This document shows positions 1 to 15,433 of a DNA stretch of 15,433 nt, piece by piece. Where the stretch lies: positions 1 to 15,433 of the forward strand of contig QMZM01000018.1 of assembly GCA_003663175.1 (NCBI GenBank). Reading direction: 5' to 3'. The notes under the pieces were generated by a model, which was given only the letters and a program-made list of their open reading frames with translations, searched no databases and was not told the origin of the DNA. Position numbers and translations under genes: made by a program. Source of the DNA: Candidatus Altiarchaeales archaeon. GTDB lineage: Archaea; Altiarchaeota; Altiarchaeia; IMC4; QMZM01. Each line of letters starts with the position of its first letter. Within the stretch, counting starts at the first letter, position 1.

Positions 1-1755
1 AGTGTAGTAGTTTGTGTAGATGTTTGTCCCCAATTGCTTTGTGGTGTTCCAGTTGTTTTGGTAGATGGTTCCAGTAAAATTTATGTTTACAGAGTTGTTT
101 AGCAGGTTGTTGTAGATGTAGTTTGAGCTTGAACTATCGATATAAATTCCATACTTTGAATTTCCTAAGATTGTGGAGTTTGTTATTGTGTTGGAATTTG
201 AACGGATGATATAGATTCCGTAGGTATTATTCTCTGCTCTTAGATTAGTGAAGTTGTTGTTAAGATTATTATAAAAATAAATTCCTTCGCTGTTCTTTAC
301 AGTAATTTTGTCAAATACATTATTGTGACTCGTATAGTCGATATAAATTCCATATGATGTTATATTGGCTATAGTTATATTCTCAAAAGTGTTGGAGCAT
401 GCATATCTTAGAAGTATTCCTACATCACAATCGGTGACTGTAATATTTGCGAATTTGTTATACATTGGGTAATAAACATTATAACCAAGATAAATTCCTC
501 GGTAAAGATTTGCAAATACACTGTTCGTTATGTTTGTATACTTAGTTGCTATTAAAATCAAACCATTATTCTTTTTATCTGTATGGTTCATGGTTAGATT
601 ATCGATTGTTGAGTAATCCGCGCCGCACAGAATAATTTCTGAAACATTGTTATTCCAATTTTGGATATGGACAGAGGAGTTGAAGAAAACTATCGGCTTG
701 TTATCTGTTCCTGTAACATTTATGAACTGAGAGTGGCAATCCATAAAGTTTACTTTTGTGAAATAATAAATATCATAGTTGGTGTTATTAATAACTTTGA
801 CATTCTTTAAAATTGTGTGGTCTGAGTAATAAATATTCACACCGTATTTACTTCCTATTATAGTTATATCTGTTAAGTTGTTGTAATCCGACTCCTCAAG
901 TTTAATTCCGTTCTCACTCATGCTTAGGTTTGATAAGGATATGTTTGATAAGGAATTGTTATCTGAGTGAAGAAGATATATCACTGTAGCAAGATATGAC
1001 TCAGATTCAACCACCAAATTTTCCAGAGTATTTCCGTCAGCATTTCTCAAATAGATGGCTCTACCTCCCCAGCCAGTTACAGTGCAGTTTCTTATCGTGA
1101 TGTTTGTTAGCTCCTCTAAATCCCTGCTAATTACAATTCCACTCATTACAATTCCATAGCTTGTAGTCTCATTTCCATCAATGGTATTTCCTTGGCAATC
1201 CAAAACTACATTGTTCGCTGTTATATTGATGCAGGAAGGTATTGAGGAATTTATTATGCTATCGTTTAAATAATAGGTTCCTGAATCAACTAAGATTGCG
1301 CACCTCGAGAAATTTCCCCCTATACCTATTGTTCTGGTTCCAGATGAGTATGTTCCACTAGCGTCTGTGCAGTTTATATACCATGTGTGGTCTCCGGGAG
1401 CTAAAGTACCGTTTACTGTTAGCGTTGTTTCTGTGTTGTTCTGGACAGAAGAATTCTCGTCATGAAGAGTGCCATCTATATAGAGAGCGCACGAATAGGT
1501 TGAATTTGTAGTGCTGTACGAAATAAAGGTAAAGACGGGTGTCGTATTTAGAGTCTGGGTGAGGTTTGCTGGCGATAAAGAGGTATAGTATATAGTTCCA
1601 TGGGATTGTTGTGAAAAGAGGTCTGCCGTACTATTGCTCGCTCCAGCAATAAGGATGAGTGCGAGCGTAAAACATAAAATGAAACCAAAATCTAGCATCC
1701 TCAACATACCCACAGAATTCGAGGCTTTTACGGCATTAGATTTTATTATCTTCAT
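1..1755 (-). CDS. Secreted or surface right-handed parallel beta-helix (PbH1/NosD-like) repeat protein, N-terminal 585 aa. The C-terminus runs off the window start. It carries a signal peptide and is predicted to be heavily N-glycosylated.
   Basis: I translated the reverse complement by hand from 1755 down to 1. It is one open frame of 585 codons with no stop. The ORF track misses it only because it leaves the window. The N-terminus is MKIIKSNAVKASNSVGMLRMLDFGFILCFTLALILIAGASNS, with a hydrophobic h-region that is signal-peptide-like. Internal Met starts at 1708 and 1698 are alternatives. Repeated ~22-25-aa units such as ...NxxxxNNxI..N...YGIYI..S.NN.I.NN... (SYGIYIDYTSHNNVFDKITV, NTYGIYIIRSNSNTITNSTI, SKYGIYIDSSSSNYIYNNLL) are typical of parallel beta-helix repeats. 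Roughly 35 N-x-S/T sequons occur in 585 aa. Confidence 0.8.
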   Translation of the reverse strand, partial: MKIIKSNAVKASNSVGMLRMLDFGFILCFTLALILIAGASNSTADLFSQQSHGTIYYTSLSPANLTQTLNTTPVFTFISYSTTNSTYSCALYIDGTLHDENSSVQNNTETTLTVNGTLAPGDHTWYINCTDASGTYSSGTRTIGIGGNFSRCAILVDSGTYYLNDSIINSSIPSCINITANNVVLDCQGNTIDGNETTSYGIVMSGIVISRDLEELTNITIRNCTVTGWGGRAIYLRNADGNTLENLVVESESYLATVIYLLHSDNNSLSNISLSNLSMSENGIKLEESDYNNLTDITIIGSKYGVNIYYSDHTILKNVKVINNTNYDIYYFTKVNFMDCHSQFINVTGTDNKPIVFFNSSVHIQNWNNNVSEIILCGADYSTIDNLTMNHTDKKNNGLILIATKYTNITNSVFANLYRGIYLGYNVYYPMYNKFANITVTDCDVGILLRYACSNTFENITIANITSYGIYIDYTSHNNVFDKITVKNSEGIYFYNNLNNNFTNLRAENNTYGIYIIRSNSNTITNSTILGNSKYGIYIDSSSSNYIYNNLLNNSVNINFTGTIYQNNWNTTKQLGTNIYTNYYT

Positions 1756-1775
1756 TACAATCACCAAGATACGGC

Positions 1776-1790
1776 GACTTTTAAGTCCTA
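1776..1790 (-). promoter_or_regulatory. Candidate archaeal TATA box (minus-strand CTTAAAAG) centred about 27 nt upstream of the ATG at 1755. This would imply a leaderless or near-leaderless transcript of the surface-protein gene.
   Basis: The + strand has cttttaag at 1778-1785. The spacing to the ATG (1755-1753) matches the archaeal TATA-to-TSS distance of about -26/-27. There is no obvious SD-like purine tract before the ATG. Confidence 0.35.
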
Positions 1791-2221
1791 TAATCCTATA
1801 ACGATTTTGCCCTCAATCCTAAACATGTAATATTTTTTGATTCTGATATTAAATCTGAGTGTGAATGAATATTTCATGTAGGTGGTGTGCAAAATTCCTA
1901 CACGCTGAGAGTATAAAGGTGAAGTAATCTAAGGGGTTACATGCCATCACCACAATATACATTAATATCGTCATGACGAAACAGTAAAGTTTACGACTTC
2001 ACCGATCAGATTATGAAGTTATAGATAGCTGCGAATGACTCTATCCAAATTAATCCACTTTCCTTTCCAATGGTGGTAAAGTGTGCGGGACAAAGCCTTG
2101 ATTTCGGAACTCTACAGTCTCGGTTCATGAGGGAGTATATATAAACGATAATTTAGAATAAATACTGCCGCAATTGTAATTATTAAATTTCCAATAACTG
2201 ACAATTACATCAAAAAATCGA

Positions 2222-2557
2222 TTAATCTTTTGTCTCTCCCAAGACCTCCTTCATAAGACTAATGCTAAGATCCAATACCTCAACCAATTTCCTTCTCGTT
2301 GATTCGATGTCCTCCGAATTTAGTTGAATCTCCTGCAGCGCCTTTCCCAATGTGTTGCAACCCACAATACTCTCGATCCATGCTGCAAAGTCATTTCTAT
2401 TGTCCATATGAAATGCTATAACATCCCCGGGAACAATTTCAATTGCATTTCTGAGCCCCTCTATGTCATGGATTTCTGCTATAACCACATCATGGTCTCT
2501 CTTCAATTTGAATGAATTCTCGCTTTCAACTGGTCTGAGATAATTTTTTATTTCCAT
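2222..2557 (-). CDS. Hypothetical small soluble protein (111 aa)
   Basis: Clean ORF with a 43-nt gap downstream of the MFS gene on the same strand. I recognise no motif. No TM segments or Cys clusters. Confidence 0.5.
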   Translation of the reverse strand: MEIKNYLRPVESENSFKLKRDHDVVIAEIHDIEGLRNAIEIVPGDVIAFHMDNRNDFAAWIESIVGCNTLGKALQEIQLNSEDIESTRRKLVEVLDLSISLMKEVLGETKD

Positions 2558-2600
2558 TTTTCTGCTTCATTTAATAAATTTCCATTTTTAAAATATAAAG

Positions 2601-3776
2601 TTAGCGGTTTTCCCTTCGAAATATTGTTAAGAGGAATAAAACCGCAATGAGGCTCATTATTCCGCCATAGATAAATGTCATCTCATGTGAAATATTCCAG
2701 AGGAATCCCGCTATTACACTTGAAGGTAGAGTCATTATGCCATTTACCGTATGGAATGTTCCAAGTGCCGTTGACCTCACCCTTTCCTTAGATAAATCAG
2801 ATACATAAGCCCTCTGATTTCCATCGATTATTGCGTCTGCAATTCCATAGACTGAAAACAGAATGAGAAATGCCAGTAGAGAATTTAGATACGCAAATCC
2901 GAGGCATGTAAATGAAAAGAGAGCATAACCGAGAATAATAATCCTTTTTCTCCCAATTCTATCGGAGATGATTCCAAATGGAATTGAGAACATAACCTTA
3001 AATGTCTTGAATAATGCATATAGTAAAATTGGCACTGCAATTGCAAATTTTCCGGTAAGGGATTCTTCTACCCTGAGAATAAAGAACATATAACTGAAAT
3101 TTGCCAGCGCGAATATCCCGGAGATTAGGATAAATACTCTCAATTCCCTGGATAATCTTCTCAGATTTATTCTTAGGGTTGTATCAATTGGTTTTCTCTT
3201 CTTTTCCCTCACGAGGTAGAGCGGAAGTATTGACGAAAAGGAGATTATCGCAGCGATGAATATTATACTACTTAAACCAATATCAAAAAACCAGAACAAT
3301 ATAAAGGCAGAAATCGTTCCAAGAATTGCCCCGGCCTCATCAAATGCCCTGTGAATTCCAAATCCCTTGCCCTTTTCCCTCGGCATCGATTCCGAGAGTA
3401 TCGAGTCTCGTGGTGATGTCCTAATGCCCTTACCTACCCTCTCAAGCGAGGTAAACAACAACACATGTTGCCATTTGCTGGAGAATGACAACAGCAACTT
3501 GAATATTGCAGATGTAAGATAACCAGAACAGACAAATACCTTCCTCTTCCCAGTTTTGTCGGATAAATAACCACTGATCACATTCAATAAACTTGAGACA
3601 CTATCTCTTAAACCTGCAATCAATCCGATCTCAATTCCCCCACCACCAAGTAATTTTATGAAGACTGGAAGAATTGGTATTATCATCTCGCTGCTCAGGT
3701 CATTCAAGAAACTTACTATTCCTAAGAGAATAACATTTTTTCCTCCCGGAATGGTGTTCTTTTCTCCAATTCTCAT
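2601..3776 (-). CDS. Major facilitator superfamily (MFS) transporter
   Basis: About 12 hydrophobic segments. The MFS signature loop between TM2 and TM3 is GYLSDKTGKRKVF (G-x-L-aD-r-x-G-r-r/k). It is repeated in the second half as GIISDRIGRKRIIILG. The ATG overlaps the stop of the upstream gene (ATGA at 3773-3776). Confidence 0.85.
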   Translation of the reverse strand: MRIGEKNTIPGGKNVILLGIVSFLNDLSSEMIIPILPVFIKLLGGGGIEIGLIAGLRDSVSSLLNVISGYLSDKTGKRKVFVCSGYLTSAIFKLLLSFSSKWQHVLLFTSLERVGKGIRTSPRDSILSESMPREKGKGFGIHRAFDEAGAILGTISAFILFWFFDIGLSSIIFIAAIISFSSILPLYLVREKKRKPIDTTLRINLRRLSRELRVFILISGIFALANFSYMFFILRVEESLTGKFAIAVPILLYALFKTFKVMFSIPFGIISDRIGRKRIIILGYALFSFTCLGFAYLNSLLAFLILFSVYGIADAIIDGNQRAYVSDLSKERVRSTALGTFHTVNGIMTLPSSVIAGFLWNISHEMTFIYGGIMSLIAVLFLLTIFRRENR

Positions 3777-4840: not shown

Positions 4841-5935
4841 ATGCCGACAATTGAAGAAAGGATAAGGGAAATTGAGGAAGAGATAAGGAAAACTCCATAT
4901 AATAAAAAGACTCAGCACCATATAGGTAGGCTAAAGGCAAAACTTGCAAGACTGAGGGAAGAATTAATATCGAGAGGCGGCGGGGGTGGTGCAAGAACAG
5001 AGGGCATCAGAAAGTTTGGTGATGCGAGTGTTGCATTAGTCGGTTTTCCGTCCGTTGGAAAATCAACCCTGTTGAATAAATTGACAAATGTTAAGTCAAA
5101 AATTGCAGAATACGAGTTCACAACCCTGAGCGTAATCCCCGGGATGATGAAGTATAATGGGGCAGATATTCAGTTAATTGATTTGCCCGGGATTATAGAG
5201 GGAGCATCGATCGGTAGAGGAAGGGGGAAAGAAATTCTCTCGGTGATTAGGAATATGGATTTAATTCTGATAATTGTTGATGCCTTAAGGATTGAGCAAC
5301 TCGGGATTATAGAGGATGAACTATACAAGATTGGAATTAGGCTAAATCAAAGGCGCCCAGATATTAAGATAGAGAGAAAGCACAGTGGAGGGATTCATAT
5401 TATCTCAAATAAGAATCTAAAAATTAAAAAAGAATTAATCAAGGAAATTCTCAACGAATATAAGATTCATTCCGCAGATGTAACGATCCATGAAGAAGTT
5501 GATGAGGAGAAGATTATAGATGCCATAGTCGGAAACAGAGTCTATATTCCATCGATCATCGTAATTAATAAGATAGACCTCCTTGATGACTTAAATTCAT
5601 TAAATTCAATTGGAGAGAAGATCAAGAGAGAATTTATTCCAATATCTGCGAAGAATGGAACGAATCTTGATGTGTTGAAGGATGAGATATTTAGGAGATT
5701 GGGATTTATAAGGATTTATATGAAGCCCCCCGGTAAAGAGGCAGATATGGAAGAGCCATTGATAATGAAGAGTGGTTCGAGAATTATAGATGTATGTGAT
5801 AAAATTCACCAGGATATTAAGAAGGGATTTAGATATGCGAGGGTCTGGGGAAATTCCGTAAGATTCGATGGTCAGATTGTTGGCTTGGAGCATGAGGTTA
5901 AGGATGGGGATATAGTTACAATTATAACGAGATGA
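4841..5935 (+). CDS. Developmentally regulated GTP-binding protein (DRG/Rbg1-type, Obg-family GTPase) with a C-terminal TGS domain
   Basis: N-terminus MPTIEERIREIEEEIRKTPYNKKTQHHIGRLKAKLARLREEL followed by a Gly-rich stretch, as in DRG1/2. G1 is GFPSVGKST, G3 is DLPG, G4 is NKID. The C-terminal GDIVTIIT is TGS-like. Confidence 0.9.
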   Translation: MPTIEERIREIEEEIRKTPYNKKTQHHIGRLKAKLARLREELISRGGGGGARTEGIRKFGDASVALVGFPSVGKSTLLNKLTNVKSKIAEYEFTTLSVIPGMMKYNGADIQLIDLPGIIEGASIGRGRGKEILSVIRNMDLILIIVDALRIEQLGIIEDELYKIGIRLNQRRPDIKIERKHSGGIHIISNKNLKIKKELIKEILNEYKIHSADVTIHEEVDEEKIIDAIVGNRVYIPSIIVINKIDLLDDLNSLNSIGEKIKREFIPISAKNGTNLDVLKDEIFRRLGFIRIYMKPPGKEADMEEPLIMKSGSRIIDVCDKIHQDIKKGFRYARVWGNSVRFDGQIVGLEHEVKDGDIVTIITR

Positions 5936-5945
5936 TCCGAGATGA

Positions 5946-6140
5946 TTAAGACTCACCCTCCTTCTTCTTCACCCTTGTTATATAACCAGCAATCTTATTT
6001 CTCATCGTCTTTGATTCGACATTACTAAACTCCTGAACCTTCCTCTTGTTTGTTTCAAAATCTGTTGTAAATTCATCACCATATTCCTCCAAGAGTTTGT
6101 CCGCAATCCTCTTCAAAAATGCCTGTTTTATTCTCCCCAT
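5946..6140 (-). CDS. rps17e: 30S ribosomal protein S17e (eS17)
   Basis: [38 protein letters not shown]...[11 protein letters not shown] matches the conserved eS17 N-terminal pattern MGxIrxxxiKRxa..L.ekY...F..DFe.NK..v.e......K.[11 protein letters not shown]. Confidence 0.85.
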
Positions 6141-6146
6141 TCCACA

Positions 6147-7010
6147 TCACCTATATAATAGATCCCAAATTGTTATTTCTTCATCATCCTCGACCCTAAC
6201 AATTTGTGGTTCCCCCTCAATTCCAGCCAATTCTGAAGCAACCTCTATTGCCTTGTCCATTCCACCAATATAATCAATTAACCCCAAATCCTTTGCATCT
6301 TTCCCAAGATATATGCTTCCATCGGAGATATTCCTGACATATTCTGGAGAGAGATTTCTATTCTTTGCAACATCATTTATGAAGTCGTTATAGACATCAT
6401 CAACTATCTCTTGCAATTCCCTTTTTTCTTCTTCCGTCATTTCTCTATATGGACTTCCAATGTCCTTTACATCGCCGGACTTTATAACAGTAACATTTAT
6501 TCCAATCTTTTTATATAATTCATAATAATGTTTAATTGTCATAATAACACCAATACTGCCAGTTATTGAATTCTCATCCGCAACGATCTTATCTGCCCCA
6601 GAAGCGACATAATATGCCCCCGAAGCTCCAACCTCTCCAATCCACGCAACAACGGGCTTTTTACACTCCTTTACAGCCCTCATTAATTCTCTGCTCGCGA
6701 CAACACTTCCACCGCCGGAATTTATATCGAGAATTATTGCCTTTGTAAATGGATCGCCATCCTCTCTCTTAATTATCTCCTTTAATTTTCTTACATTTGC
6801 ACACTGGGGTGTTTCAAGGATAGTTGCCTGACAACCCTCAATTGTTATCTCACCCTTTATTGGAATTACTGCTATCTTGTTTCCAATTCTGGGCACCTCA
6901 CCACTTAAAATTCCCACAATGAAAAATGTCATTCCCATAATCCCCAAAATGAACAGAAAGATTGCCCCAATCGTAATCAAAATCTTCCACTTCCTTTTCA
7001 TCCAACTCAC
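6147..7010 (-). CDS. sppA: Signal peptide peptidase SppA (S49 family, 36K type). It has an N-terminal TM anchor.
   Basis: N-terminal TM helix, then the ClpP/crotonase-fold S49 signature ...AIILDINSGGGSVVASRELMRAVKE...PVVAWIGEVGASGAYYVASGADKIVADENSITGSIGV... Confidence 0.85.
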   Translation of the reverse strand: MSWMKRKWKILITIGAIFLFILGIMGMTFFIVGILSGEVPRIGNKIAVIPIKGEITIEGCQATILETPQCANVRKLKEIIKREDGDPFTKAIILDINSGGGSVVASRELMRAVKECKKPVVAWIGEVGASGAYYVASGADKIVADENSITGSIGVIMTIKHYYELYKKIGINVTVIKSGDVKDIGSPYREMTEEEKRELQEIVDDVYNDFINDVAKNRNLSPEYVRNISDGSIYLGKDAKDLGLIDYIGGMDKAIEVASELAGIEGEPQIVRVEDDEEITIWDLLYR

Positions 7011-7076
7011 CAGGGTATTGATTAAGTTAATAAGACATGACCCTCTCTATTATCTCTTGTTATTTTTGTATTAGAG

Positions 7077-7150
7077 TGCGGTCGCCGGGATTTGAACCCG
7101 GGTCGCGGGCTTGGCAAGCCCGAGTGATAACCAGACTACACTACGACCGC
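7077..7150 (-). tRNA. tRNA-Gly (anticodon GCC), 74 nt, no intron, CCA not encoded
   Basis: The reverse complement GCGGTCGTAGTGTAGTCTGGTTATCACTCGGGCTTGCCAAGCCCGCGACCCGGGTTCAAATCCCGGCGACCGCA folds as a cloverleaf. The 7-bp acceptor stem is GCGGTCG/CGACCGC. The anticodon stem is CGGGC/GCCCG with loop TTGCCAA. The T-arm is CCGGG-TTCAAAT-CCCGG. The discriminator is A. A TATA-like element (taaataaa) lies about 25-32 nt upstream on the - strand. Confidence 0.9.
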
Positions 7151-7264
7151 TAAATCACGAATCATGAAATGTTGATTTATTTAGGATTATTGGGATACAA
7201 TTATTATTTTAGGATAATTAATAAACTTATAAGGATGTAAGAAATAAATATTTGGATTGAAAAA

Positions 7265-8263
7265 ATGCACGAGTCGGTTTTCTTATTATTTATTTTATCA
7301 TTCATCGGCACTTATCTCATGACTCCTTGGATAATACCAAAACTGAGAAGAGCAAAGATTACTGGAAAGGACATGAATAAACCCGGAATGCCGGAGATTC
7401 CGGAGATGGGTGGTTTTGCAATCGTCTTTGGCACCTCCTTAGGTGTTTTGACAGCGATCGCGGCTTATACATTCTCTGAACAGATTTATTCCATTACCGG
7501 GCTTACATTATTTCCAGAACTTAGACTTGAACTCATATTTGCTTCTCTATCAACAATTCTCATAATCTCGATAATTGGGATATTTGATGATTTATTCTCT
7601 ATGAGGCAAATTGTTAAGGCTTTATTGCCATTATTTGCAGCACTTCCATTGGTTGCTGTAAAGGCTGGAACAACAAAGATGGTAATTCCATTTATCGGCT
7701 CTATAGAATTCGGTATACTCTACATTCTAATTCTTGTTCCAATAGGAATTACCGGGGCGTCAAATGTTACAAATATGCTCGCTGGTTTTAACGGGCTTGA
7801 GGCGGGAATGGGATTGGTTGCATGTTTATCCCTGGCATTTATTGCATTCAAAACAAATAATCCCGAGAGTTTTATAATTCTAATCGCCATTAGTGGTGCG
7901 CTGCTAGCATTTTTATTCTATAACTGGTATCCCGCAAAGATATTAATCGGCGATATCGGAACCCTGACAATAGGTGCTGCGATCTCCTCTGCAGTAATTG
8001 TTGGAAATTTTGAGACCGCTGGAATAATCGTGATAATTCCGTATGCCATTGATTTTTTTATAAAGGCAATAAATGGATTTCCATCAGGCGATTGGTGGGG
8101 CACATGCATAAATGGAAAATTATACTGCAAAAAAAAGCCAATAAGTTTTTGTCAGTGGATAATGAAGCTTAGTAATGGAATCTCTGAGCAGAATTTGGTT
8201 TTATCATTAATTTTCTTTGAATTTATCTGTGGAATTATCGCAATTTTAATATTTTCTATTTAA
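7265..8263 (+). CDS. aglH: UDP-GlcNAc:dolichyl-phosphate GlcNAc-1-phosphate transferase (AglH/GPT/WecA/MraY superfamily). It is the initiating enzyme of N-glycan assembly.
   Basis: Polytopic membrane protein with the family motifs IGIFDDLFSM (DDxxD), NVTNMLAGFNGLEAG (Nxx-N-x-x-DG/NG-L) and YPAKILIGDIGTLTIGAAI (cf. akiFmGDtGSL). Confidence 0.8.
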   Translation: MHESVFLLFILSFIGTYLMTPWIIPKLRRAKITGKDMNKPGMPEIPEMGGFAIVFGTSLGVLTAIAAYTFSEQIYSITGLTLFPELRLELIFASLSTILIISIIGIFDDLFSMRQIVKALLPLFAALPLVAVKAGTTKMVIPFIGSIEFGILYILILVPIGITGASNVTNMLAGFNGLEAGMGLVACLSLAFIAFKTNNPESFIILIAISGALLAFLFYNWYPAKILIGDIGTLTIGAAISSAVIVGNFETAGIIVIIPYAIDFFIKAINGFPSGDWWGTCINGKLYCKKKPISFCQWIMKLSNGISEQNLVLSLIFFEFICGIIAILIFSI

Positions 8264-8370: not shown

Positions 8371-9519
8371 ATGGCTTTAATACCACTTGGAGAAGGTCAA
8401 AAGAGGAGAGGGTTTTCGCTCAGAGGTAAGCAGGAGACCGGATTTAGATGGATGGATGTGATCTATGTTCTAATAATGGCATTTCTTTTTGTTATGCTTA
8501 TATTCCCCCCAACAGATGCGATCGTAATTGGAAATTTTTATATAAATTTTCGCCTCTTTGTTTTACTGTTGATTGCCATCCTATATATCCAAAGGACTAT
8601 TGTTAAATTTGATGAATATGAGAGGGGCGTTGTTTTTAGGCTGGGTAAATTCAAGGAAGTTGCCGGACCTGGTTGGACACTGATTTTCCCGCTTCTTGAG
8701 AAGTATGTTAGGGTAGATTTGAGGTTGCATGTATATACCATAGACCCCCAAGAGGTTGTTACAAGGGATAAGGTTAGATTCTTGGTATCGCCGGAGGTTT
8801 TTATGTATGTATCGGACCCAAAGAGTGCAGTTATAAATGTCAGAGATTATGAGAGTGCAGTCCTAAGCTATGTAAATTCCGCATTAACCCATATATGTGG
8901 AAGTTCCACTTCTGACTATATAGTTTCTCATATGGATGAGATAACTCATAAGATCGAGGCATCCATACATAAAGCCGCAAATCAGCCGGGGAGAGAATGG
9001 GGTGTGGTTGTTCCGAAGATTAAATTAACATTTATAAGATTTCCCGAGAAGGTACAGGATGCCATGCATGAGAAGGTTGCTGCAGAGCAATTGAAGTTGG
9101 CTGCACATGAAAAGGCCGAAGCAATTAAGGTTGAAATCGATGCCATTAGAGAAGCTGGTTCTAAATTGACAGACCCTGCTCTAACATATATGTACTTAGA
9201 GGCATTAGATAAGATCGCGAGAGGAAGGGCAACAAAAATAGTATTGCCGTTGGAGATTTCAAGATTGGCAGAATCGATTACAAAGAGGACTGGTGTTTCT
9301 CCGGAGTCATTAATTACACCAGAGATGGTCAATTATTACAAAGATGTTATGGATAAGTATGAACAGAGGATAAGAAGCATAGAGAAGAAACTAGAGAAGG
9401 ATGAAATCGAACCAAAGAGATTAGAAGAGTACAAGGAGGATATTGAAAAAGAGGAGGAAGAATATAAAAAGAGAATTGAGGAAATAAAGAAGAGATTGGG
9501 TGTGATTAAAAATGAGTGA
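8371..9519 (+). CDS. SPFH/band-7 (stomatin/prohibitin-like) membrane protein with a long KE-rich coiled-coil C-terminus
   Basis: N-terminal TM helix, then the SPFH core FDEYERGVVFRLGKFKEVAGPGWTLIFPLLEKYVRVDLRLHVYTIDPQEVVTRDKVRFLV. The C-terminal third is charged heptad-like (EEYKEDIEKEEEEYKKRIEEIKKRL). Confidence 0.85.
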   Translation: MALIPLGEGQKRRGFSLRGKQETGFRWMDVIYVLIMAFLFVMLIFPPTDAIVIGNFYINFRLFVLLLIAILYIQRTIVKFDEYERGVVFRLGKFKEVAGPGWTLIFPLLEKYVRVDLRLHVYTIDPQEVVTRDKVRFLVSPEVFMYVSDPKSAVINVRDYESAVLSYVNSALTHICGSSTSDYIVSHMDEITHKIEASIHKAANQPGREWGVVVPKIKLTFIRFPEKVQDAMHEKVAAEQLKLAAHEKAEAIKVEIDAIREAGSKLTDPALTYMYLEALDKIARGRATKIVLPLEISRLAESITKRTGVSPESLITPEMVNYYKDVMDKYEQRIRSIEKKLEKDEIEPKRLEEYKEDIEKEEEEYKKRIEEIKKRLGVIKNE

Positions 9520-9787
9520 TGAAGATTTAAACACCAATAACATCACAATCGATGAAAGTGGGAAATCTGTTACCGTGAGAGTAAATCCAAAATTATACAA
9601 GGTTCATGTAATAATGAGGGCCGCCGACGAATTAATTGACGATAATCACATAATAATAAATGGTGACCCAGAAAAAAGCATAATAGTGAAATTTATATCA
9701 AAAAAGGACGAGGTGACGAGGGAGGAATTGTTAAAGACGGCGTACGAATTTAACACATTATTGGTTGCGATAAGTGGCAAGGGTTAA
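9512..9787 (+). CDS. Hypothetical 91-aa soluble protein, translationally coupled between the SPFH gene and the REase-fold/PAP2 fusion gene
   Basis: Its start overlaps the SPFH stop (ATGA at about 9512-9519). Its end overlaps the next ORF by 14 nt. There is no TM segment and no recognisable motif. Confidence 0.6.
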   Translation: MSDEDLNTNNITIDESGKSVTVRVNPKLYKVHVIMRAADELIDDNHIIINGDPEKSIIVKFISKKDEVTREELLKTAYEFNTLLVAISGKG

Positions 9788-11537
9788 TATGGACATCCCC
9801 TTCATATTTGATAAGGGTCCCCCAGAGCCCGAAAGACTAGAATTGGATGAGAACAAACTGAGAAAACTTCTATCTAAATTATTACCCGAATTTAATCTAG
9901 AGATAAAATATATGGAAAGGACCAGGGAGGGAGACATTATTATCGTTTCTCATCATTTTGTCCTAAATAAAGATGTAAGAACCCTTCTCAGGGCCATCTC
10001 ATATCACGGTCCGATAGAAAGAGAAGATATTGAGGACCTTCAAGAAGATATGTTACAAATTGGTGCAATAAATGGCATTCTAATTACATCTTCATATTTT
10101 ACGAAGGATGCGCAGAAATATGCCAAACACTTGCCAATAAGACTTGTTGATGGAGCCGAGCTAATAGAACTCTTAGAGGAACATAGGGTTGTTGAGGCAA
10201 AGGGGGCGTTTCTTCCAAGATTCACCGATGAAGAGGTTATAGATTATTTTGAGAATAGGAAAAGGGAAAGATTATTTGGGCTTTTTCCATCCGATGAGAA
10301 GATCGTCGAGATAGATAGGAGATATATTCCATTGGCACAGTTTAGATTTAGGCAAATTCTTAATGATAAGGAAATTATAAGGAATGTTTATGTTGATCTA
10401 CACAGCGGCGATGTTCTCTACCTGGAGGAGGATAAGATAATGCGAGATGACTTCATAAGGAGGATCATGGATCTGCCTCAAGATGCAAAAAAGGAGTATA
10501 TGGATTTGATAAGATATGGGGAATTAAAACATAAGTATGTCAAGGGAAAAACTCTAAATATATTGGAGAGGAAGGGTCTTGTGATTGTTCAGATGGACGG
10601 TAGGGGCGATAAATTAAATCTAATACTCGATGAAATTTCAGACGCCGTCACTATAACAACAAGTGAGATTTCAACACCAACATCTGAAGCGCCAAAACTA
10701 AAGAAGAGAGAGAAAGAAAAACAAGTTAGGGCAATTATCTATAAACCGGAGATCGATATATCATTTGACCTTGAGCACTTTATGGAATTCAGTAAAGAAA
10801 TAAAAAAGGAATTCGACCCAGATCCAATAAATTACAAATATGATGAGATTTTGGATATATTGCAAAATTTATACAAGAAAGATAAGATTTCATATGATGG
10901 TCTTGTCTATTTGCCATATTATAAGTGTAAGTATGTGACTTCAGATAATGTAGAAAGGTATGATAAATTAATTGCTCCAAAATTCAAACCATTCATGCCA
11001 AAATTTGATAAGTATCTTATCTATAGAATTATCGACAAATTTCCCGCAATTCCATATCTATTTATAGCTATCATGTATTTAATTATAAATTTGAAGGAAA
11101 TCGACAAAGTGATACATATATTTTCATCCGCGTTCATATTTTTATTGATTTGTATTATAGTTGGAATTCTGCTGAAGATTATATTCAAAACGGAGAGAAG
11201 AATTCCGAGGTATACCGGCACAATAGCAAAATATGGATTTCCATCAATTCATAGTATGGCATCCATCGGTGGCATAGCATTTGTGTATTTTGTAAATCCA
11301 TTCTTCGCATTGCTTCTAATCCCCCTGGGTTTGCTCTATGTGCACTCAAGAATTAGCCTCAAGGTCCATTCCGAGATCGATGTCTTGGGAGGGGCGATCA
11401 TTGGAATAATAATTGGAATATTCTGTGGAATCTACATACTTAAAATCCATTTGCCATATGAAATAGAAATTCTATTTAGTATCCTATTCTTTATCGTGCC
11501 ATTGGCCATAACATTTATAGAACTAAGAATGCGATAA
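9774..11537 (+). CDS. Fusion protein: N-terminal Mrr-like restriction-endonuclease-fold domain plus a central region, then a C-terminal PAP2 (type-2 phosphatidic acid / polyprenyl-pyrophosphate phosphatase) multi-TM domain
   Basis: The N-terminal ...GILITSSYFTKDAQKYAKHLPIRLVDGAELIELL... closely matches the C-terminal half of the Mrr_cat restriction-endonuclease domain (gilvTtssFtkeAreyA...ieLidgeeLlell). The canonical D...(E/Q)xK catalytic residues are not obvious. The C-terminal 150 aa are hydrophobic and carry the PAP2 motifs PSIHS (PSGH) and SRISLKVHSEID (SRxxxxxHxxxD). A KTERRIPRY segment approximates motif 1 (Kx6RP). Confidence 0.7.
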   Translation: MARVNMDIPFIFDKGPPEPERLELDENKLRKLLSKLLPEFNLEIKYMERTREGDIIIVSHHFVLNKDVRTLLRAISYHGPIEREDIEDLQEDMLQIGAINGILITSSYFTKDAQKYAKHLPIRLVDGAELIELLEEHRVVEAKGAFLPRFTDEEVIDYFENRKRERLFGLFPSDEKIVEIDRRYIPLAQFRFRQILNDKEIIRNVYVDLHSGDVLYLEEDKIMRDDFIRRIMDLPQDAKKEYMDLIRYGELKHKYVKGKTLNILERKGLVIVQMDGRGDKLNLILDEISDAVTITTSEISTPTSEAPKLKKREKEKQVRAIIYKPEIDISFDLEHFMEFSKEIKKEFDPDPINYKYDEILDILQNLYKKDKISYDGLVYLPYYKCKYVTSDNVERYDKLIAPKFKPFMPKFDKYLIYRIIDKFPAIPYLFIAIMYLIINLKEIDKVIHIFSSAFIFLLICIIVGILLKIIFKTERRIPRYTGTIAKYGFPSIHSMASIGGIAFVYFVNPFFALLLIPLGLLYVHSRISLKVHSEIDVLGGAIIGIIIGIFCGIYILKIHLPYEIEILFSILFFIVPLAITFIELRMR

Positions 11538-11846
11538 TTAGTATCCTGCGGGCCTACTATATAGAAAATTAACCAGGGCCAGTGCAAGGGCAATTATAAA
11601 AAGACCAAGGAGCGTATAAATTAAGCCATTTCTGGCTTCTCTTTTGTCCTCGGTGGTGGAGGCGGTTATAAATTTAAATCCATGAAATATTAATAGGAGA
11701 GTCGCAAATGCTGTGGATATCCCATATATAAGATTCACGAAATCCCAGATCGATGCCTCCCTCAACTCGATGGGTATGATGTGCTGAGAATAAACATTAG
11801 AAATTAATATAAAGACTAAAAAAATTACCAAGATTTTATATTTCAT
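11538..11846 (-). CDS. VirB2/TrbC-like pilin candidate (conjugative or Ced-type pilus subunit), 102 aa
   Basis: Cleavable signal peptide MKYKILVIFLVFILISNVYS|QH. The mature part of about 80 aa has two hydrophobic helices (IWDFVNLIYGISTAFATLLLIFHGF and GLIYTLLGLFIIALALALVNFLY) separated by a short polar loop (TASTTEDKREARN). This is the hallmark size and topology of VirB2/TrbC/TraA/CedA1 pilins. It lies in an operon with a VirB4-like ATPase. Confidence 0.6.
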   Translation of the reverse strand: MKYKILVIFLVFILISNVYSQHIIPIELREASIWDFVNLIYGISTAFATLLLIFHGFKFITASTTEDKREARNGLIYTLLGLFIIALALALVNFLYSRPAGY

Positions 11847-11885
11847 ATTTTCCCTTCACTATTGAATTTAATTTAAATCCTTGGG

Positions 11886-12146
11886 TTATACCATATTTGC
11901 CCTTATTATCTCCTCCAATATTTCAAGAAACTTCTTTTCTTGATCCTCGGTCAATTCAACTAAACCACCTTCTTCGATGCGCAAATCGTTGTTGTCTGCA
12001 ACAACAACCAATGCCCTTGAAACTGGGACACCGAATATCTTTCTCAGATCTTCGTTGGCATTCAGGTCCTTTATTATATTCTCAAGTATGTCCATCCGTA
12101 TTCCAACCCTGTCCGGGTTTACCTTCTCGGTTTCTTCTTCTGGCAT
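11886..12146 (-). CDS. Small acidic soluble protein (86 aa) of unknown function inside the VirB4/pilin cluster
   Basis: Clean ORF 15 nt downstream of the VirB4-like gene and 39 nt upstream of the pilin gene, on the same strand. Glu/Asp-rich with no TM. Confidence 0.55.
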   Translation of the reverse strand: MPEEETEKVNPDRVGIRMDILENIIKDLNANEDLRKIFGVPVSRALVVVADNNDLRIEEGGLVELTEDQEKKFLEILEEIIRANMV

Positions 12147-12161
12147 TTTTCATACCTCCAT

Positions 12162-14468
12162 TTATTTCGTTTCAAATATCTTCCTTATCTTTGCGGGAAC
12201 TTGAGTCCTCAACAGTATTTCACCAAATTCATCATATTTCTTTAATTCTGGATCTGTGACAACATAGAAATAGATGTCATATCTCCTTAACATTTTTAGT
12301 TTATCCCTCATTCTATCTAAGCTTATTTCAACATTTGGTTCTGCAATTATCTCTATCGCCACTATCTCTCCAGTTAATGTCTCAAATGTTATATCTGGCA
12401 GTGTTGTGTGATGAATTAACACCCTATCGGTATATTTCTTTATTTCTTCGTATATGAGATACTGCAAAACGAAATGTTCATCAGTTTCTTTGGTTTCATT
12501 TCTTATAATAAACACCTCATTCATTCCTTCTAAGTTCTCCACCTTAACCTCGTGGAATCCCATATTAAGAAGAGCCTGCATTTCATCATAACTCAACTTA
12601 GCTTCACGATGGATCGGCTTTGTCACATCAAATTCCATCTTGGCTTCATATTCGACCTCTGGACCCTTTTTCTCTTCTCTTACCAATTCTCTCAACTCAT
12701 CTGGCTTTGTTGTTATTATACGATGTTCCTCGGGCGATGCTTGGATATAGATGGGCACCCTTGAATTCCCAGCTATAAGTAATGCATTACCGATACCCGC
12801 TCTCTTCACGAATTCTGCCTCGGCCTCATTTAAATGAAATCTTTCCACAATATCATCTATTACCGTTGTATCTTGCTTTAATAATAATTTTGTTGCCGTG
12901 TTTGCCATTACTGCCCTACCAGCCCTCGATGTCAACACATCCTCAACATCTTGGGTTATCATTATAAGACCGAGATTGAATTTTCTACAGGTCTTTATTA
13001 TTCTGAAGACATACTCCCCCTCTTCACCGGCCGATAGGACAGTCCATGCCTCGTCTATAACAACAATCTTCCTCTTCTTAGATTTCTTCATTTGATTGTA
13101 GATATATTCCAAAAGGAGGAACATAATTGGACCCTTCCCAACATCTGGTATATCCCTTATATCGAATGATATCATTCTATTGTCCAATTCCATCTTTGTG
13201 TGCTGATTTAGAAATCTGAGACCACCAGTGACAAATGGCTTTAATCTCGTCACTATGGCCATTGCAGGTTTATAGATTATATCCTTATCGGACCTTGTTA
13301 ATGGAAGTACATGATTATATAAATCCTCGAGGATTGGTGGTGTTTTGGACCACGTTCTTGGGTCATGGGTAATCCCAGCATCTTCATATGTAGAATCAAT
13401 ACAATCATCTAGGATCGCCCTCATACTCTCGTCCATTCCACCCATCAACACTCTAAAGAATGAAAGCAGAGATAATTTCTTCTCATCATAACTCTGGCCC
13501 AACATATCCATGGGATTTATAATGTTATCCGAATCCGGCGCGATCCTAATTATCTTACCATCAAATGTCTTCACCAAGTCGGTATATTCTGCTTGCGGGT
13601 CAATTATATTTATATCAACACCCTCCATAAATTCCCTCATAATTAATAATTTTATACAATAGCTCTTCCCACCGCCCGATGTACCCAAGACAATTATATT
13701 TGGATTACTCAGCTCAAAGGGATCAATAATTATGGGGATATTATTTATCTGATTAAACCCTATCAAGATTCCCGTTGTGTGATGCTCGAGTGAAGTAGTT
13801 GCGAATGGGAAGCACGCCGCTACCCCAGATGATGTAATGTTTCTTGTTATATGAATCTCATCATTCCCTATTGGCAATACCGACCTTAATGCGGAGTACA
13901 TCTGAAATGATGGAATCTTCGGTGTTATCATTATCGATGTCATGTTCGCCTTTATCTTACTTGTGACCTTATCCAAGGTTTTTTTGTCATGCGCCTTTGC
14001 ATCAATATATAGACTCATATCGAACATCTTCTCAGTCCCAGCCTGTATCTGGCTCAGCAGTGCCATTGTATCTTGATGCTTTTGTATCAATGATTGTGGA
14101 ACGATCTTGCCCTCGGACTCAAGTGCATAGATGTCTGTCTTCTGCTTTTTCAGTTCATTTTCCAACATCGTTATTGTAGATTCAATTGAATACGGTCTTA
14201 TATGAATTGATAAATCAAAATCGAGATTCATCTCAATAAGCCTTGTTAACCATCCCGGCTCAACCACCCTGGGAAAATTTATTGCCGCAATTACCCTGTG
14301 AAATTTGTTATCTATATCGATATAGTCTGGATGCCTCTTAATTGTGGAGGGTGATGTCAAATATGTTAGTAATTTATTCTTGTATTCATCATACAATTTC
14401 TTCTTCCCTTCCTTTTTCTTCTTCATGAATGGCAGTTTTTTTATTGGAAGTTTTATGTTTGGAAACAT
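12162..14468 (-). CDS. VirB4/TrbE/TraC (CedB-like) family conjugation-type ATPase, 768 aa. It appears to lack its usual N-terminal domain, which is encoded by the upstream ORF.
   Basis: The mid-domain FHRVIAAINFPRVVEPGWLTRLIEMNLDFDLSIHIRP matches the conserved VirB4 region (y.r.l.i..yP..v..gwl..L......d.s.hi.p). Walker A is IIVLGTSGGGKSYCIK. The next block is IIDPQAEYTDLV...GKIIRIAPDSDNIINPMD (cf. iDpkGEy..l....gG..i.l.....NPld). Walker B is RKIVVIDEAWTVL. The family-specific ...CRKFNLGLIMITQDVEDV matches (gRKyn..l.laTQ...d). Confidence 0.85.
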   Translation of the reverse strand: MFPNIKLPIKKLPFMKKKKEGKKKLYDEYKNKLLTYLTSPSTIKRHPDYIDIDNKFHRVIAAINFPRVVEPGWLTRLIEMNLDFDLSIHIRPYSIESTITMLENELKKQKTDIYALESEGKIVPQSLIQKHQDTMALLSQIQAGTEKMFDMSLYIDAKAHDKKTLDKVTSKIKANMTSIMITPKIPSFQMYSALRSVLPIGNDEIHITRNITSSGVAACFPFATTSLEHHTTGILIGFNQINNIPIIIDPFELSNPNIIVLGTSGGGKSYCIKLLIMREFMEGVDINIIDPQAEYTDLVKTFDGKIIRIAPDSDNIINPMDMLGQSYDEKKLSLLSFFRVLMGGMDESMRAILDDCIDSTYEDAGITHDPRTWSKTPPILEDLYNHVLPLTRSDKDIIYKPAMAIVTRLKPFVTGGLRFLNQHTKMELDNRMISFDIRDIPDVGKGPIMFLLLEYIYNQMKKSKKRKIVVIDEAWTVLSAGEEGEYVFRIIKTCRKFNLGLIMITQDVEDVLTSRAGRAVMANTATKLLLKQDTTVIDDIVERFHLNEAEAEFVKRAGIGNALLIAGNSRVPIYIQASPEEHRIITTKPDELRELVREEKKGPEVEYEAKMEFDVTKPIHREAKLSYDEMQALLNMGFHEVKVENLEGMNEVFIIRNETKETDEHFVLQYLIYEEIKKYTDRVLIHHTTLPDITFETLTGEIVAIEIIAEPNVEISLDRMRDKLKMLRRYDIYFYVVTDPELKKYDEFGEILLRTQVPAKIRKIFETK

Positions 14469-14469
14469 T

Positions 14470-15360
14470 TTAGGATTCAGATAAAATTTGGGTTGAGGAT
14501 TTGGATATCTTTTCTGGGGTCTTCCACAATCTCTTATACATTGTTACTGGAGATACAAATTCCTCATCGATATAGATCATCTCTGTGAAATACGATGCAT
14601 ATAAATTCAACAATTCCTTGGTATTCAATCTCTTTGAATTTATTCCAGAATATGATAGTGAATCCATAATATTTCTACACCGCACATCAAGACTTCTCAG
14701 GACCTCTCTCTCATCCCAGTGTTTCTTCGCCGGAATTACGATGTAGAATAATCTATCATTTATCTTTATATCCTTTATAAATTCATTCATATATGTTGCA
14801 AAGTGTTCATAATATGCTAAGGAAATCTTATCATCCCTCTCCTCAATTCTCCTCTTTAATGCTGCGAGATAATCACCAATATCCAAATTGACACTCTTCA
14901 TAACAATCTGAATTGGAAAATCAATTGTATTCAAAAATTCTAAAAAACCATATATCACGGAATCTTGGTCATCCTTGCTCAGCATACCAAAATTTATTGG
15001 GGTTACCTGTATAATCCCCAATGCCCTACCATCTTTCATAAACACGGTATCTGCCCTTATGTCCTTCACCTCCATGAGGTTCTGTGCATCTGGAGACAGC
15101 CAAGAAATCCTCTTCTTAGCCCCGGCAAATGTGGCGAGAGTCATGATATAGGCATCTAAGTTCAGTAAAGCAAATGCTAAGCCCCCTCCACCAACGACCA
15201 AAACGATTAATATTTTAAAAAACTCCGGCTTTATATTGGAAAACATCCAAACATATAGGCAAATTGCCCCAGCAACTCCAATATATATGGATTGCTTTAT
15301 TGTAAATGGTCCGATGAATCTCTCCTCATACTTCACATCGGTTGGAATTATTACTGGCAT
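14470..15360 (-). CDS. Membrane protein with a 2-TM, VirB3-like N-terminus plus a VirB4 N-terminal-domain-like soluble region. It is probably the 5' portion of a split or frameshifted VirB3-VirB4 gene.
   Basis: Two TM helices (SIYIGVAGAICLYVWMF and ILIVLVVGGGGLAFALLNL). Then EVKDIRADTVFMKDGRALGIIQVTPINFGMLSKDDQDSVIYGFLEFLNTIDFPIQIVMKS, which matches the N-terminal domain of TraC/VirB4-type ATPases (I.dg.i..kdG.y..il.v.pinf.l.s..e......f...l..l....qi....). Its stop TAA (14470-14472) is followed by one nt and then the ATG of the ATPase ORF. Confidence 0.7.
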   Translation of the reverse strand: MPVIIPTDVKYEERFIGPFTIKQSIYIGVAGAICLYVWMFSNIKPEFFKILIVLVVGGGGLAFALLNLDAYIMTLATFAGAKKRISWLSPDAQNLMEVKDIRADTVFMKDGRALGIIQVTPINFGMLSKDDQDSVIYGFLEFLNTIDFPIQIVMKSVNLDIGDYLAALKRRIEERDDKISLAYYEHFATYMNEFIKDIKINDRLFYIVIPAKKHWDEREVLRSLDVRCRNIMDSLSYSGINSKRLNTKELLNLYASYFTEMIYIDEEFVSPVTMYKRLWKTPEKISKSSTQILSES

Positions 15361-15433
15361 TTTAATTTAATTATTATTTGAATTTTGCAATTATTAGTCT
15401 CTTATATCTATATCTTCCTTGAGTGTCTACATA

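Follow-up and report, generated by a model that had tools for sequence, protein, structure and literature searches.

Does a short run of genes in an archaeal chromosome encode a machine that passes DNA from one cell to another? The question is raised by a 15,433-bp stretch of DNA (the window) that makes up the entire contig of a Candidatus Altiarchaeales metagenome-assembled genome (MAG). Near one end of the window, four minus-strand genes resemble parts of a type IV secretion system (T4SS). An earlier description made from the letters of the window alone (the sequence-only reading) had called them a minimal conjugation-type DNA-transfer module, composed of VirB3/VirB4 ATPase genes, a small acidic protein, and a VirB2-like pilin. 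Our analysis leaves little doubt that the genes form a T4SS-derived VirB3/VirB4/pilin module. It also favors, although with modest confidence, the fuller explanation that the module belongs to a chromosomally fixed, vertically inherited T4SS-derived apparatus that is spread across Altiarchaeota and serves DNA exchange.

The four-gene set

The exact coordinates of the four open reading frames (ORFs) agree with the co-directional, tightly spaced arrangement described earlier. The intergenic gaps are 39, 15, and 1 nt, so that the stop codon of the VirB3-like gene is 1 nt from the start of the VirB4 gene. GGAGG-type Shine-Dalgarno-like motifs are found 5' of both small genes (86 aa and 102 aa). 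The genes and the extra domain of VirB4, with the evidence for each in brackets, are as follows.

14470..15360, minus strand: VirB3/PrgI-like anchor with two transmembrane (TM) helices and a TrsD/TraC-like VirB4 N-terminal domain, 296 aa (profiles, TM prediction)
12162..14468, minus strand: VirB4-family ATPase, 768 aa, with a CagE/TrbE-like middle, a P-loop ATPase, and an extra C-terminal domain (profiles, PDB)
12165..12626, minus strand: C-terminal domain of VirB4, aa ~615-768, predicted as a small α/β subdomain and a PD-(D/E)xK-like fold (AF2, Foldseek)
11886..12146, minus strand: acidic cytoplasmic protein, 86 aa, operonic, between VirB4 and the pilin (no family match)
11538..11846, minus strand: VirB2-type pilin precursor, 102 aa, with a signal peptide, two hydrophobic helices, and a charged loop (PF18895)

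The VirB4 ATPase

The 768-aa protein is a VirB4-family ATPase, as the sequence-only reading had proposed. It scores 329.9 bits (cutoff 325) over residues 39-574 against the NCBIfam model conju_CD1110, a 'VirB4-like conjugal transfer ATPase', and 267 bits against VirB4_plasma, a VirB4 model from Mycoplasma integrative and conjugative elements (ICEs). TraC-F and VirB4_CagE give 145 bits each, and the Pfam family P-loop_TraG matches with an E-value of 5e-24. The best match in the PDB is the C-terminal/ATPase domain of Thermoanaerobacter VirB4 (4ag5, E 7e-34). The protein has a Walker A motif (GTSGGGKS, 262-269), a Walker B motif (DEAW, 472-475), an RK pair (495-496), and Q506. The motifs on which the earlier call was built (FPRVVEPGWL, GTSGGGKS, DEAW, and RK...TQ) are invariant in an alignment of 16 homologs. 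Some orthologs already carry the database label 'VirB4 family' or 'TraC'.

The sequence-only reading had likened the module to the Ced pilus of Crenarchaeota. This likening does not hold. The host belongs to Altiarchaeota, and VirB4 scores 53.9 bits against CedB (NF041017, cutoff 700) and 53.3 bits against CedD (cutoff 600). With a CedB score so far under the cutoff, the ATPase is not a Ced member by profile score. By the same measure, it appears to group with MPF-FATA-like (Firmicutes/Mycoplasma-type) VirB4s.

Inteins are found in the ATPase region of some Altiarchaeota VirB4 orthologs. One ortholog (P0141, 1426 aa) has Intein_splicing and LAGLIDADG matches, and two others (P0108 and P0111) have a precomputed Intein_splicing match. 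Inteins are usually located in conserved essential proteins.

A nuclease-like domain at the C-terminus of VirB4

What is the extra domain at the end of VirB4? Residues ~615-768 match no Pfam family. An AF2 model of this region (pLDDT 92.1) consists of a small N-terminal α/β subdomain (β-α-β-β), which in our own reading looks winged-helix-like, followed by an alpha-beta-beta-beta-alpha-beta core. A Foldseek search with the model matched NucS/EndoMS first, with a probability of 0.99 and a best E-value of 2.4e-3 (none < 1e-3), and then YaeQ, Hjc, and Card1. The predicted core has the fold of the PD-(D/E)xK superfamily. In other words, VirB4 is predicted to carry a fused PD-(D/E)xK nuclease-like domain that has not been reported before.

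The domain is present in Altiarchaeota orthologs and in a sister clade of VirB4s from DPANN archaea (DPANN-type, described below). In the model, P691-D692 lies directly before beta2 and E706 lies in beta3. Both clades show an invariant E706 and a D692 that is at least 90% conserved; in the helix after beta3 lies a nearly invariant K723. The domain is rare: only 167 representative clusters match it, some at the C-termini of VirB4s and others in small proteins that lack annotation.

The VirB3-like protein and the 86-aa protein

The 296-aa protein had been described as a two-TM protein that carries the VirB4 N-terminal domain, and the profiles support this description. Two TM helices are predicted (25-43 and 50-68), and the protein matches the N-terminal 260 residues of VirB4 models, including VirB4_plasma (residues 15-277, E 2e-15). 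It also matches NCBIfam TrsD (9.7e-7) and has a precomputed Pfam match to PF26593 (TraC-like). The match to PrgI (E 2.1e-5, 25.4 bits) is slightly under the cutoff of 27; the ortholog at locus L007 has a precomputed PF12666 PrgI match. A single-sequence search against the PDB gave nothing useful for this protein. In ~30 of the 36 DPANN-type homologs, the VirB3/N-domain and VirB4 form one polypeptide. This fusion is Rosetta-stone evidence that the two proteins interact.

The small acidic protein of the module is also present. It is 86 aa long and has no match in Pfam, NCBIfam, PADLOC, or the PDB. Its homologs occur at the equivalent position only in the closest Altiarchaeota relatives (L006, L008, L011, and L016; 50-72% identity).

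The pilins

The 102-aa protein has hydrophobic segments at residues 5-23, 36-54, and 74-92, which correspond to a signal peptide and two helices with a charged loop. It scores 50.7 bits against PF18895 (T4SS_pilin, cutoff 26.6). Thus, the call of a VirB2-like pilin stands, and of the two pilin families it is T4SS_pilin whose cutoff is passed; TrbC/VirB2 gives only E 0.0026 for this protein. The match to the NCBIfam Mbov_0395 pilin-like conjugal transfer protein (E 2.9e-7, 30 bits) is below the cutoff of 40, and no Ced model is among the NCBIfam matches of the pilin. A single-sequence PDB search with it gave nothing useful.

A second pilin of 114 aa is encoded upstream of the module, outside the window. 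It passes the cutoffs of both families (T4SS_pilin, 42.0 bits; PF04956 TrbC/VirB2, 28.6 bits, cutoff 27.9) and is 27% identical to the window pilin (E 3e-11). Arrays of two to five pilin genes are common in relatives.

The T4SS_pilin hairpin is also found fused to larger secreted proteins in the relatives L008 (4509-7205) and L006 (13320-14438, minus strand, and 18620-19948). The hairpin is C-terminal in an 898-aa and a 372-aa protein; in a 442-aa protein it lies at the N-terminus, ahead of a PKD domain. These proteins would be pilin-anchored surface proteins or adhesins.

The locus beyond the window

An identical VirB4 is also encoded on longer metagenomic contigs. One such locus (L001), from a 31.4-kb contig, reaches 10 kb past the end of the window. 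The sequence-only reading had placed the operon start at 15360. This is incorrect, because on L001 the gene for a 262-aa cytoplasmic winged-helix-containing protein ends 13 nt upstream of the VirB3-like gene. This gene is in turn preceded by the gene for the second pilin. The window holds the distal two-thirds of the apparatus. Homologs of the 262-aa protein fell into only 2 clusters in our search.

An AT-rich TATA-like region precedes the second pilin gene, and its stop codon is followed by an oligo-T tract. A 19-nt inverted repeat (84% complementary, 11-nt spacer) overlaps the TATA-like region; the coordinates of these features on L001 are 7591-7639 and 8050-8068. Judging from these sequence signals, the repeat and the oligo-T tract suggest a separately regulated, strongly expressed second-pilin transcript.

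Farther upstream on L001 are genes for a PMT_2 glycosyltransferase, a GT2 glycosyltransferase, and several GT-C-like polytopic proteins. A 110-aa ORF (5533-5865) just upstream of the PMT_2 gene (5866-7452) duplicates the C-terminal domain of PMT_2 with 43% identity, and a 70-nt DNA repeat (84% identical) marks this duplication.

The sequence-only reading had seen no integrase, relaxase, VirD4, or VirB6-like gene and had offered two explanations: the rest of the system lies beyond the window, or the system is reduced. Each is partly true. The 262-aa protein and the second pilin were indeed found past position 15433. The integrase, relaxase, VirD4, and VirB6-like genes are absent from the 10 kb beyond the window as they are from the window itself, and no integrase lies within 22 kb around the genes. 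The relaxase, VirD4, and integrase negatives are based on Pfam and NCBIfam matches of the window genes, a scan of the upstream ORFs, and precomputed Pfam matches of the other L001 genes. A profile built from 26 VirB6-like proteins with six TM helices from DPANN-type loci matched only the two small pilins on L001 (19.3 and 14.9 bits). Likewise, no gene for ParA, Rad50, or HerA, the kind of neighbors that mark a Ted system, is present in the window or on L001.

Comparison with relatives points in the same direction. In L008, the closest relative (VirB4 identity 79%), the genes for the acidic protein and the pilin are separated by five additional genes, one of which encodes the 898-aa secreted protein that ends in a T4SS_pilin/TrbC hairpin. 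Since these genes are present in L008, the window locus is a reduced form. Unlike its relatives, it has no VirB6-like gene and no pilin-fused surface protein nearby.

Distribution and a probably mobile sister clade

Protein and genome searches found full-length VirB4 orthologs with 61-85% identity in 44 Altiarchaeota species genomes, including a 1.39-Mb contig of IMC4 SM1 and a 1.56-Mb contig. The ortholog loci are surrounded by housekeeping genes (PheRS, ThrRS, eRF1, and DRG). The window is no different: its DRG GTPase, S17e, S49 protease, and GT4/AglH-like neighbors confirm the housekeeping setting seen earlier, and the GC content, third-position GC content, and codon usage of the four genes are the same as in the rest of the contig. 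In two genome pairs, VirB4 is 70% and 68% identical, compared with 59% and 55% for the DRG GTPase.

A second VirB4 group, with 38-43% identity over the full length including the nuclease-like domain, is found in MAGs of Woese-, Pace-, Nano-, and Iainarchaeota; two Altiarchaeota genomes also carry it as a second copy. In a midpoint-rooted neighbor-joining tree, 39 orthologs split cleanly from 36 DPANN-type and paralog sequences. T4SS_pilin genes lie upstream of VirB4 in this group as well. The layouts differ, as determined by neighborhood clustering of the loci. The DPANN-type layout consists of a ~110-aa pilin, a ~450-aa secreted protein with a C-terminal anchor, a ~290-aa VirB6-like protein with six TM helices, and, usually, a single ~1000-aa polypeptide that combines VirB3, the N-domain, and VirB4; the 6-TM and secreted proteins are additions relative to the window operon.

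In Altiarchaeota, two arrangements recur among the 44 species genomes. Type A (~14 ortholog loci) is co-directional and runs GT2, PMT_2, pilin, VirB3-like, VirB4, Band7, a ~95-aa protein, and a restriction endonuclease (REase)-like/X/PAP2 protein. Type B (~19 loci) contains polytopic VirB6-like proteins of 600-1770 aa, a Zn-ribbon protein, a 330-420-aa protein, the VirB3-like protein, VirB4, a 50-aa protein, and 2-3 pilins. The DPANN-type VirB6-like profile matches the 600-1770-aa polytopic proteins with 40-64 bits. The window is a relative of type A in which the last three genes are inverted, with their end abutting the pilin stop codon.

The surroundings of the two clades set them apart. Profiles for tyrosine integrases, N6/N4 and MT-A70 methylases, and type I restriction-modification (R-M) systems had no match in 649 kb of ortholog loci (46 loci on the Altiarchaeota side for the integrase profile). 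In the 37 sister-clade loci, integrases were found in 10 and methylases in 13 (N6/N4 in 11 and MT-A70 in 3, with both in one locus). The islands include orphan DNA methylases. Several of these loci have type I R-M genes, and R-M, GmrSD, or UvrD-type genes are present in many. DPANN-type systems thus appear, in our reading, to ride in integrase-bearing islands. Because the sister clade sits in such integrase, methylase, and R-M islands, the Altiarchaeota system looks domesticated, as Ced and Ted are. We read it as a putative domesticated chromosomal derivative or sister of the DPANN-type systems, and very probably it is a core chromosomal locus rather than a mobile element.

Two Altiarchaeota genomes, LFW-28 (L043 and L051) and SCGC AAA252-I15 (L036 and L056), have two forms of VirB4: the chromosomal ortholog and a DPANN-type copy with genes for type I R-M and methylases on its flanks. 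Genomes with both copies suggest that the mobile form also circulates in Altiarchaeota. Several contigs with a VirB4 of the Altiarchaeota or DPANN type are filed under Spirochaetia, Methanosarcinales, or Bdellovibrionales bins (L049, L059, L064, L069-L071, L077, L078, and L084); these labels probably reflect mis-binning or mislabelling in public assemblies.

Comparison with known systems

Which known system is the closest? In parts list and lifestyle, it is the chromosomal T4SS of Patescibacteria (Quinonero-Coronel et al. 2025, PMC12102498; Wang et al. 2023, cited therein). Both systems are chromosomal, lack a relaxase, use an MPF-FATA-related VirB4, and occur in small-genome lineages. Both also have a PrgI/VirB3-like partner, a TrsD-like N-domain protein, and VirB2-like pilins recognized by PF18895 or PF04956, often in arrays (PMC12102498). 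However, the host is bacterial there and archaeal here. VirB3 and the TrsD-like domain form one protein here (which includes VirB4 in DPANN), whereas no VirB3-VirB4 fusions were detected in the Patescibacteria study (PMC12102498). VirB4 has a C-terminal PD-(D/E)xK-like domain here, whereas the word 'nuclease' is absent from the text of PMC12102498. A further difference is that no VirB6/PrgH, VirB8, or VirB1 homolog lies near the locus. No Patescibacteria sequence is among the best 120 VirB4 matches.

MPF-FATA ICEs (CD1110/CTn2-type; Mycoplasma Mbov_0395/0397) provide the best profile matches for the ATPase and, below the cutoff, for the pilin-like protein, and a PrgI-type VirB3 is common to both. 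These elements are ICE- or plasmid-borne and have a relaxase, a type IV coupling protein (T4CP), a VirB6 (PrgH/CD1112-type), a VirB8-like protein, and a cell-wall hydrolase. All of these are missing from the locus, which in contrast occupies a conserved chromosomal position in archaea.

To our knowledge, the only domesticated archaeal T4SS derivatives described are Ced and Ted, both in Thermoproteota. Ced, from Sulfolobales, was reportedly described by van Wolferen in 2016, and Ted, from Thermoproteales, by Beltran et al. in 2023. As portrayed in the passages of PMC9905601 considered here, these systems share several features with the locus: they are archaeal and chromosomally domesticated, have a VirB4-like ATPase and VirB2-like pilins, and lack a relaxase. 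Furthermore, a mobile-element ancestor or sister is paired with a chromosomal derivative in both cases, the mobile form being crenarchaeal conjugative plasmids in those passages (PMC9905601). The differences are equally clear. The scores against the CedB and CedD families do not support family-level membership, and a counterpart of the VirB6-like CedA/TedA is absent from this locus, whose pilins carry Sec signal peptides and are recognized by PF18895. The passages of PMC9905601 considered do not mention a VirB4 nuclease-like fusion, though no direct search for 'nuclease' was made there. DNA import has been shown experimentally for Ced, whereas DNA transfer by this locus is a plausible prediction. 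Ced/Ted, so far as those passages describe them (PMC9905601), and the Patescibacteria systems (PMC12102498) are precedents for domesticated relaxase-less T4SS derivatives.

Literature searches returned no paper on a T4SS in Altiarchaeota or on this VirB4 fusion. The nearest work concerns nanohaloarchaeal SPEARE giant proteins, which are proposed to contain a VirB4/TraG-like ATPase (PMC10266531). Term searches in the archaeal section of a 2025 T4SS review brought up only Sulfolobus plasmids and pT33-3.

What does the apparatus move?

By homology with bacterial T4SSs, the VirB3-like protein would dock a VirB4 hexamer on the cytoplasmic membrane, and VirB4, driven by ATP, would extract pilins from the membrane and polymerize them into a conjugative-type pilus or translocon. 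The nuclease-fold domain, the winged-helix accessory protein, and the placement of the sister clade in integrase-bearing islands point to DNA as the substrate. We consider a DNA substrate to have slightly less than an even chance. If so, the nuclease-like domain attached to VirB4 would act on DNA where the machine opens to the cytoplasm, by binding or nicking it, and would take the place of the relaxase and coupling protein, which are lacking at the locus. Cells would then use the system to exchange chromosomal DNA, in one direction of transfer or the other, in a manner analogous to Ced/Ted.

A bolder version of this idea is that the PD-(D/E)xK domain on VirB4 is the archaeal substitute for both relaxase and coupling protein, so that one polypeptide nicks or grips DNA and powers pilus assembly and translocation. 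DPANN-type systems would then be relaxase-less ICEs, and the Altiarchaeota systems would be a domesticated core set for DNA exchange in biofilms, possibly also with DPANN episymbionts. We regard this version as unlikely.

Five observations weigh against the favored explanation. The (D/E)xK lysine is absent at +2 from E706, where I, V, E, or S is found, which makes the catalytic competence of the VirB4 C-terminal domain uncertain. No VirB6-like, VirD4/T4CP, or relaxase gene is present within 22 kb around the genes, so that the machine would be incomplete unless other loci supply these parts or it can do without them. A profile of 44 pilins gave only non-significant matches to PDB sequences (VirB2 8cue, E 1.1; an inovirus coat protein, E 0.62). 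The synteny with glycosylation genes (PMT_2, GT2, GT4, and PAP2) is at least as compatible with a cell-surface role as with a DNA role. Finally, the T4SS of Patescibacteria, the chromosomal analog that has been studied best, is essential for growth as an epibiont, and it is not known to transfer DNA (PMC12102498, PMC12857230).

Most of these points are shared by the rival that survives best. In it, the same machinery handles a substrate other than DNA, either as an adhesion or cell-contact filament or as a conduit for proteins or small molecules, and the nuclease fold is an inactive regulatory or oligomerization module. The missing canonical ExK, the lack of a T4CP and a relaxase, the conserved synteny with glycosylation and envelope genes, and the Patescibacteria precedent (PMC12102498, PMC12857230) all fit this rival, as do the pilin arrays and the pilin hairpins fused to large secreted PKD/Ig-type proteins in relatives. 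However, D692, E706, and K723 stay conserved even though the clades share only 40% identity, and this favors an active or binding site that has been kept. Furthermore, the sister clade resides in integrase-bearing islands as conjugative elements do, and winged-helix modules accompany the operon. A non-DNA substrate is a possible account, but a less probable one than DNA.

Could the genes instead belong to an integrated conjugative element, either as a decaying remnant or as an active part, whose place amid housekeeping genes is a coincidence? The VirB4 models with the best scores were indeed trained on proteins from ICEs and plasmids, mobile islands house the related DPANN-type loci, and several T4SS parts are absent, as they would be in a remnant. 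The genes, however, are intact and tightly coupled, and the type A and type B arrangements recur among species. VirB4 is more conserved than the DRG GTPase, and the composition of the genes is native. Profiles for integrases, orphan methylases, and type I R-M genes had no match in the ortholog flanks, and a search for ICE boundaries at the locus found no tRNA-flanked or flanking direct-repeat boundary. We therefore consider this explanation very improbable.

An anti-phage or anti-plasmid defense system modeled on MADS or Dnd/Dpt, with a HerA/FtsK-type ATPase, a fused nuclease, and an Mrr-like endonuclease, is the least credible explanation: the ATPase domain does match PADLOC mad8 (1.7e-25), DndH (1.3e-15), and HerA as well as DptH in the PDB (1.3e-7), and the 587-aa plus-strand neighbor matches PDC-S02 and type IV REase models in PADLOC, but these are only generic P-loop and REase matches, the VirB4-specific model scores far higher (330 bits, residues 39-574) and spans the VirB4 middle domain, the VirB3-like partner and two T4SS pilins are operonic with the ATPase, the gene set is a conserved core rather than a variable island, and the Mrr-like domain appears to lack a conserved catalytic motif.

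The findings have several implications. We know of no relaxase in archaeal conjugation, and the nuclease-fold domain on the VirB4 motor is a candidate for this missing DNA-processing activity. The locus points to a third, independent case of domestication, this time in Altiarchaeota, with a mobile-element sister clade in DPANN archaea. It also extends chromosomal T4SSs with VirB2-like pilins from small-genome Patescibacteria to archaeal small-genome lineages. Even if the DNA role is wrong, a conjugative-type pilus is predicted as core equipment of a free-living archaeal phylum, of which we found no earlier report.

A plus-strand trio next to the pilin gene

Three plus-strand genes precede the pilin gene in the window, and the last of them converges on it with zero gap.

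8371-9519, plus strand: Band7/SPFH membrane scaffold, possibly associated (Band_7, 6.4e-31)
9512-9787, plus strand: 91-aa protein (p91), possibly associated (conserved trio with Band7 and REase-X-PAP2)
9774..11537, plus strand: REase-like N-domain, module X, and 6-TM PAP2, 587 aa, probable associated gene (domain analysis)

The 587-aa protein (locus tag DRO94_02155 in the public record) was also modeled with AF2. It consists of an Mrr-like REase-fold N-domain, a beta-rich module X with a MarR-like winged helix, and a 6-TM PAP2 domain. The PAP2 motifs KX6RP, PSGH, and SRX5HX3D are intact on the 6-TM core. In the Mrr-like domain, the catalytic positions (D ... (E/Q)xK) do not appear to be conserved, and a single-sequence PDB search with this domain gave nothing useful. 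We see no obvious rationale for joining a soluble DNA-binding-like module to a lipid phosphatase. A search with the REase-X-PAP2 protein returned 19 clusters; the 5 that have an organism name are all from Altiarchaeota/Altiarchaeales.

Does the trio belong to the system? Module X is 30% identical to the 262-aa protein at the head of the operon (E 3e-20), which ties module X to the system. In type B loci, a 330-420-aa protein is encoded upstream of the VirB3-like protein; the idea that it is a divergent module X was rejected (hhalign probability 0.05). The trio adjoins VirB4 in ~14 loci. VirB4, Band7, p91, and REase-X-PAP2 are co-directional in L010, L017, L018, L024, L040-42, L044, and L050, and in L048 VirB4, Band7, and p91 run up to the contig end. 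In the 1.56-Mb genome of L088, by contrast, the trio is ~115 kb from VirB4; for this reason it is treated as possibly, not certainly, part of the system. Band7 may instead pair with the nearby NfeD1b_N/S49 protease, and PAP2 may act in dolichol-phosphate cycling together with the product of the adjacent GT4/AglH-like gene.

On the 1.56-Mb Altiarchaeota contig of L088, positions 1-3012 hold the last part of a gene annotated with a product of 26,652 residues. This giant gene adjoins a gene for a GNAT/phosphoribosyltransferase protein and the Band7/p96/REase-X-PAP2 trio.

Other features of the window

The only tRNA gene, and the only match in an Rfam scan of the window, is tRNA-Gly(GCC) (7076-7150, minus strand). 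It lies between the S49 protease gene and the GT4/AglH-like gene, and no integrase or repeat is associated with it. The S49 protease (6147-7010, minus strand), which had been named SppA, also matches NfeD1b_N. It may therefore be a stomatin-specific protease that partners with the nearby Band7/SPFH protein rather than a signal-peptide peptidase. At the other end of the window, a partial ORF (1-1812, minus strand; at least 585 aa) runs off the window start. Its product has a hydrophobic N-terminal segment, NosD/right-handed beta-helix repeats (E 2e-27), a weak Ig-like Big_13 match below the cutoff (E 0.0018), and many N-x-S/T sequons, and it is probably a glycosylated surface protein.

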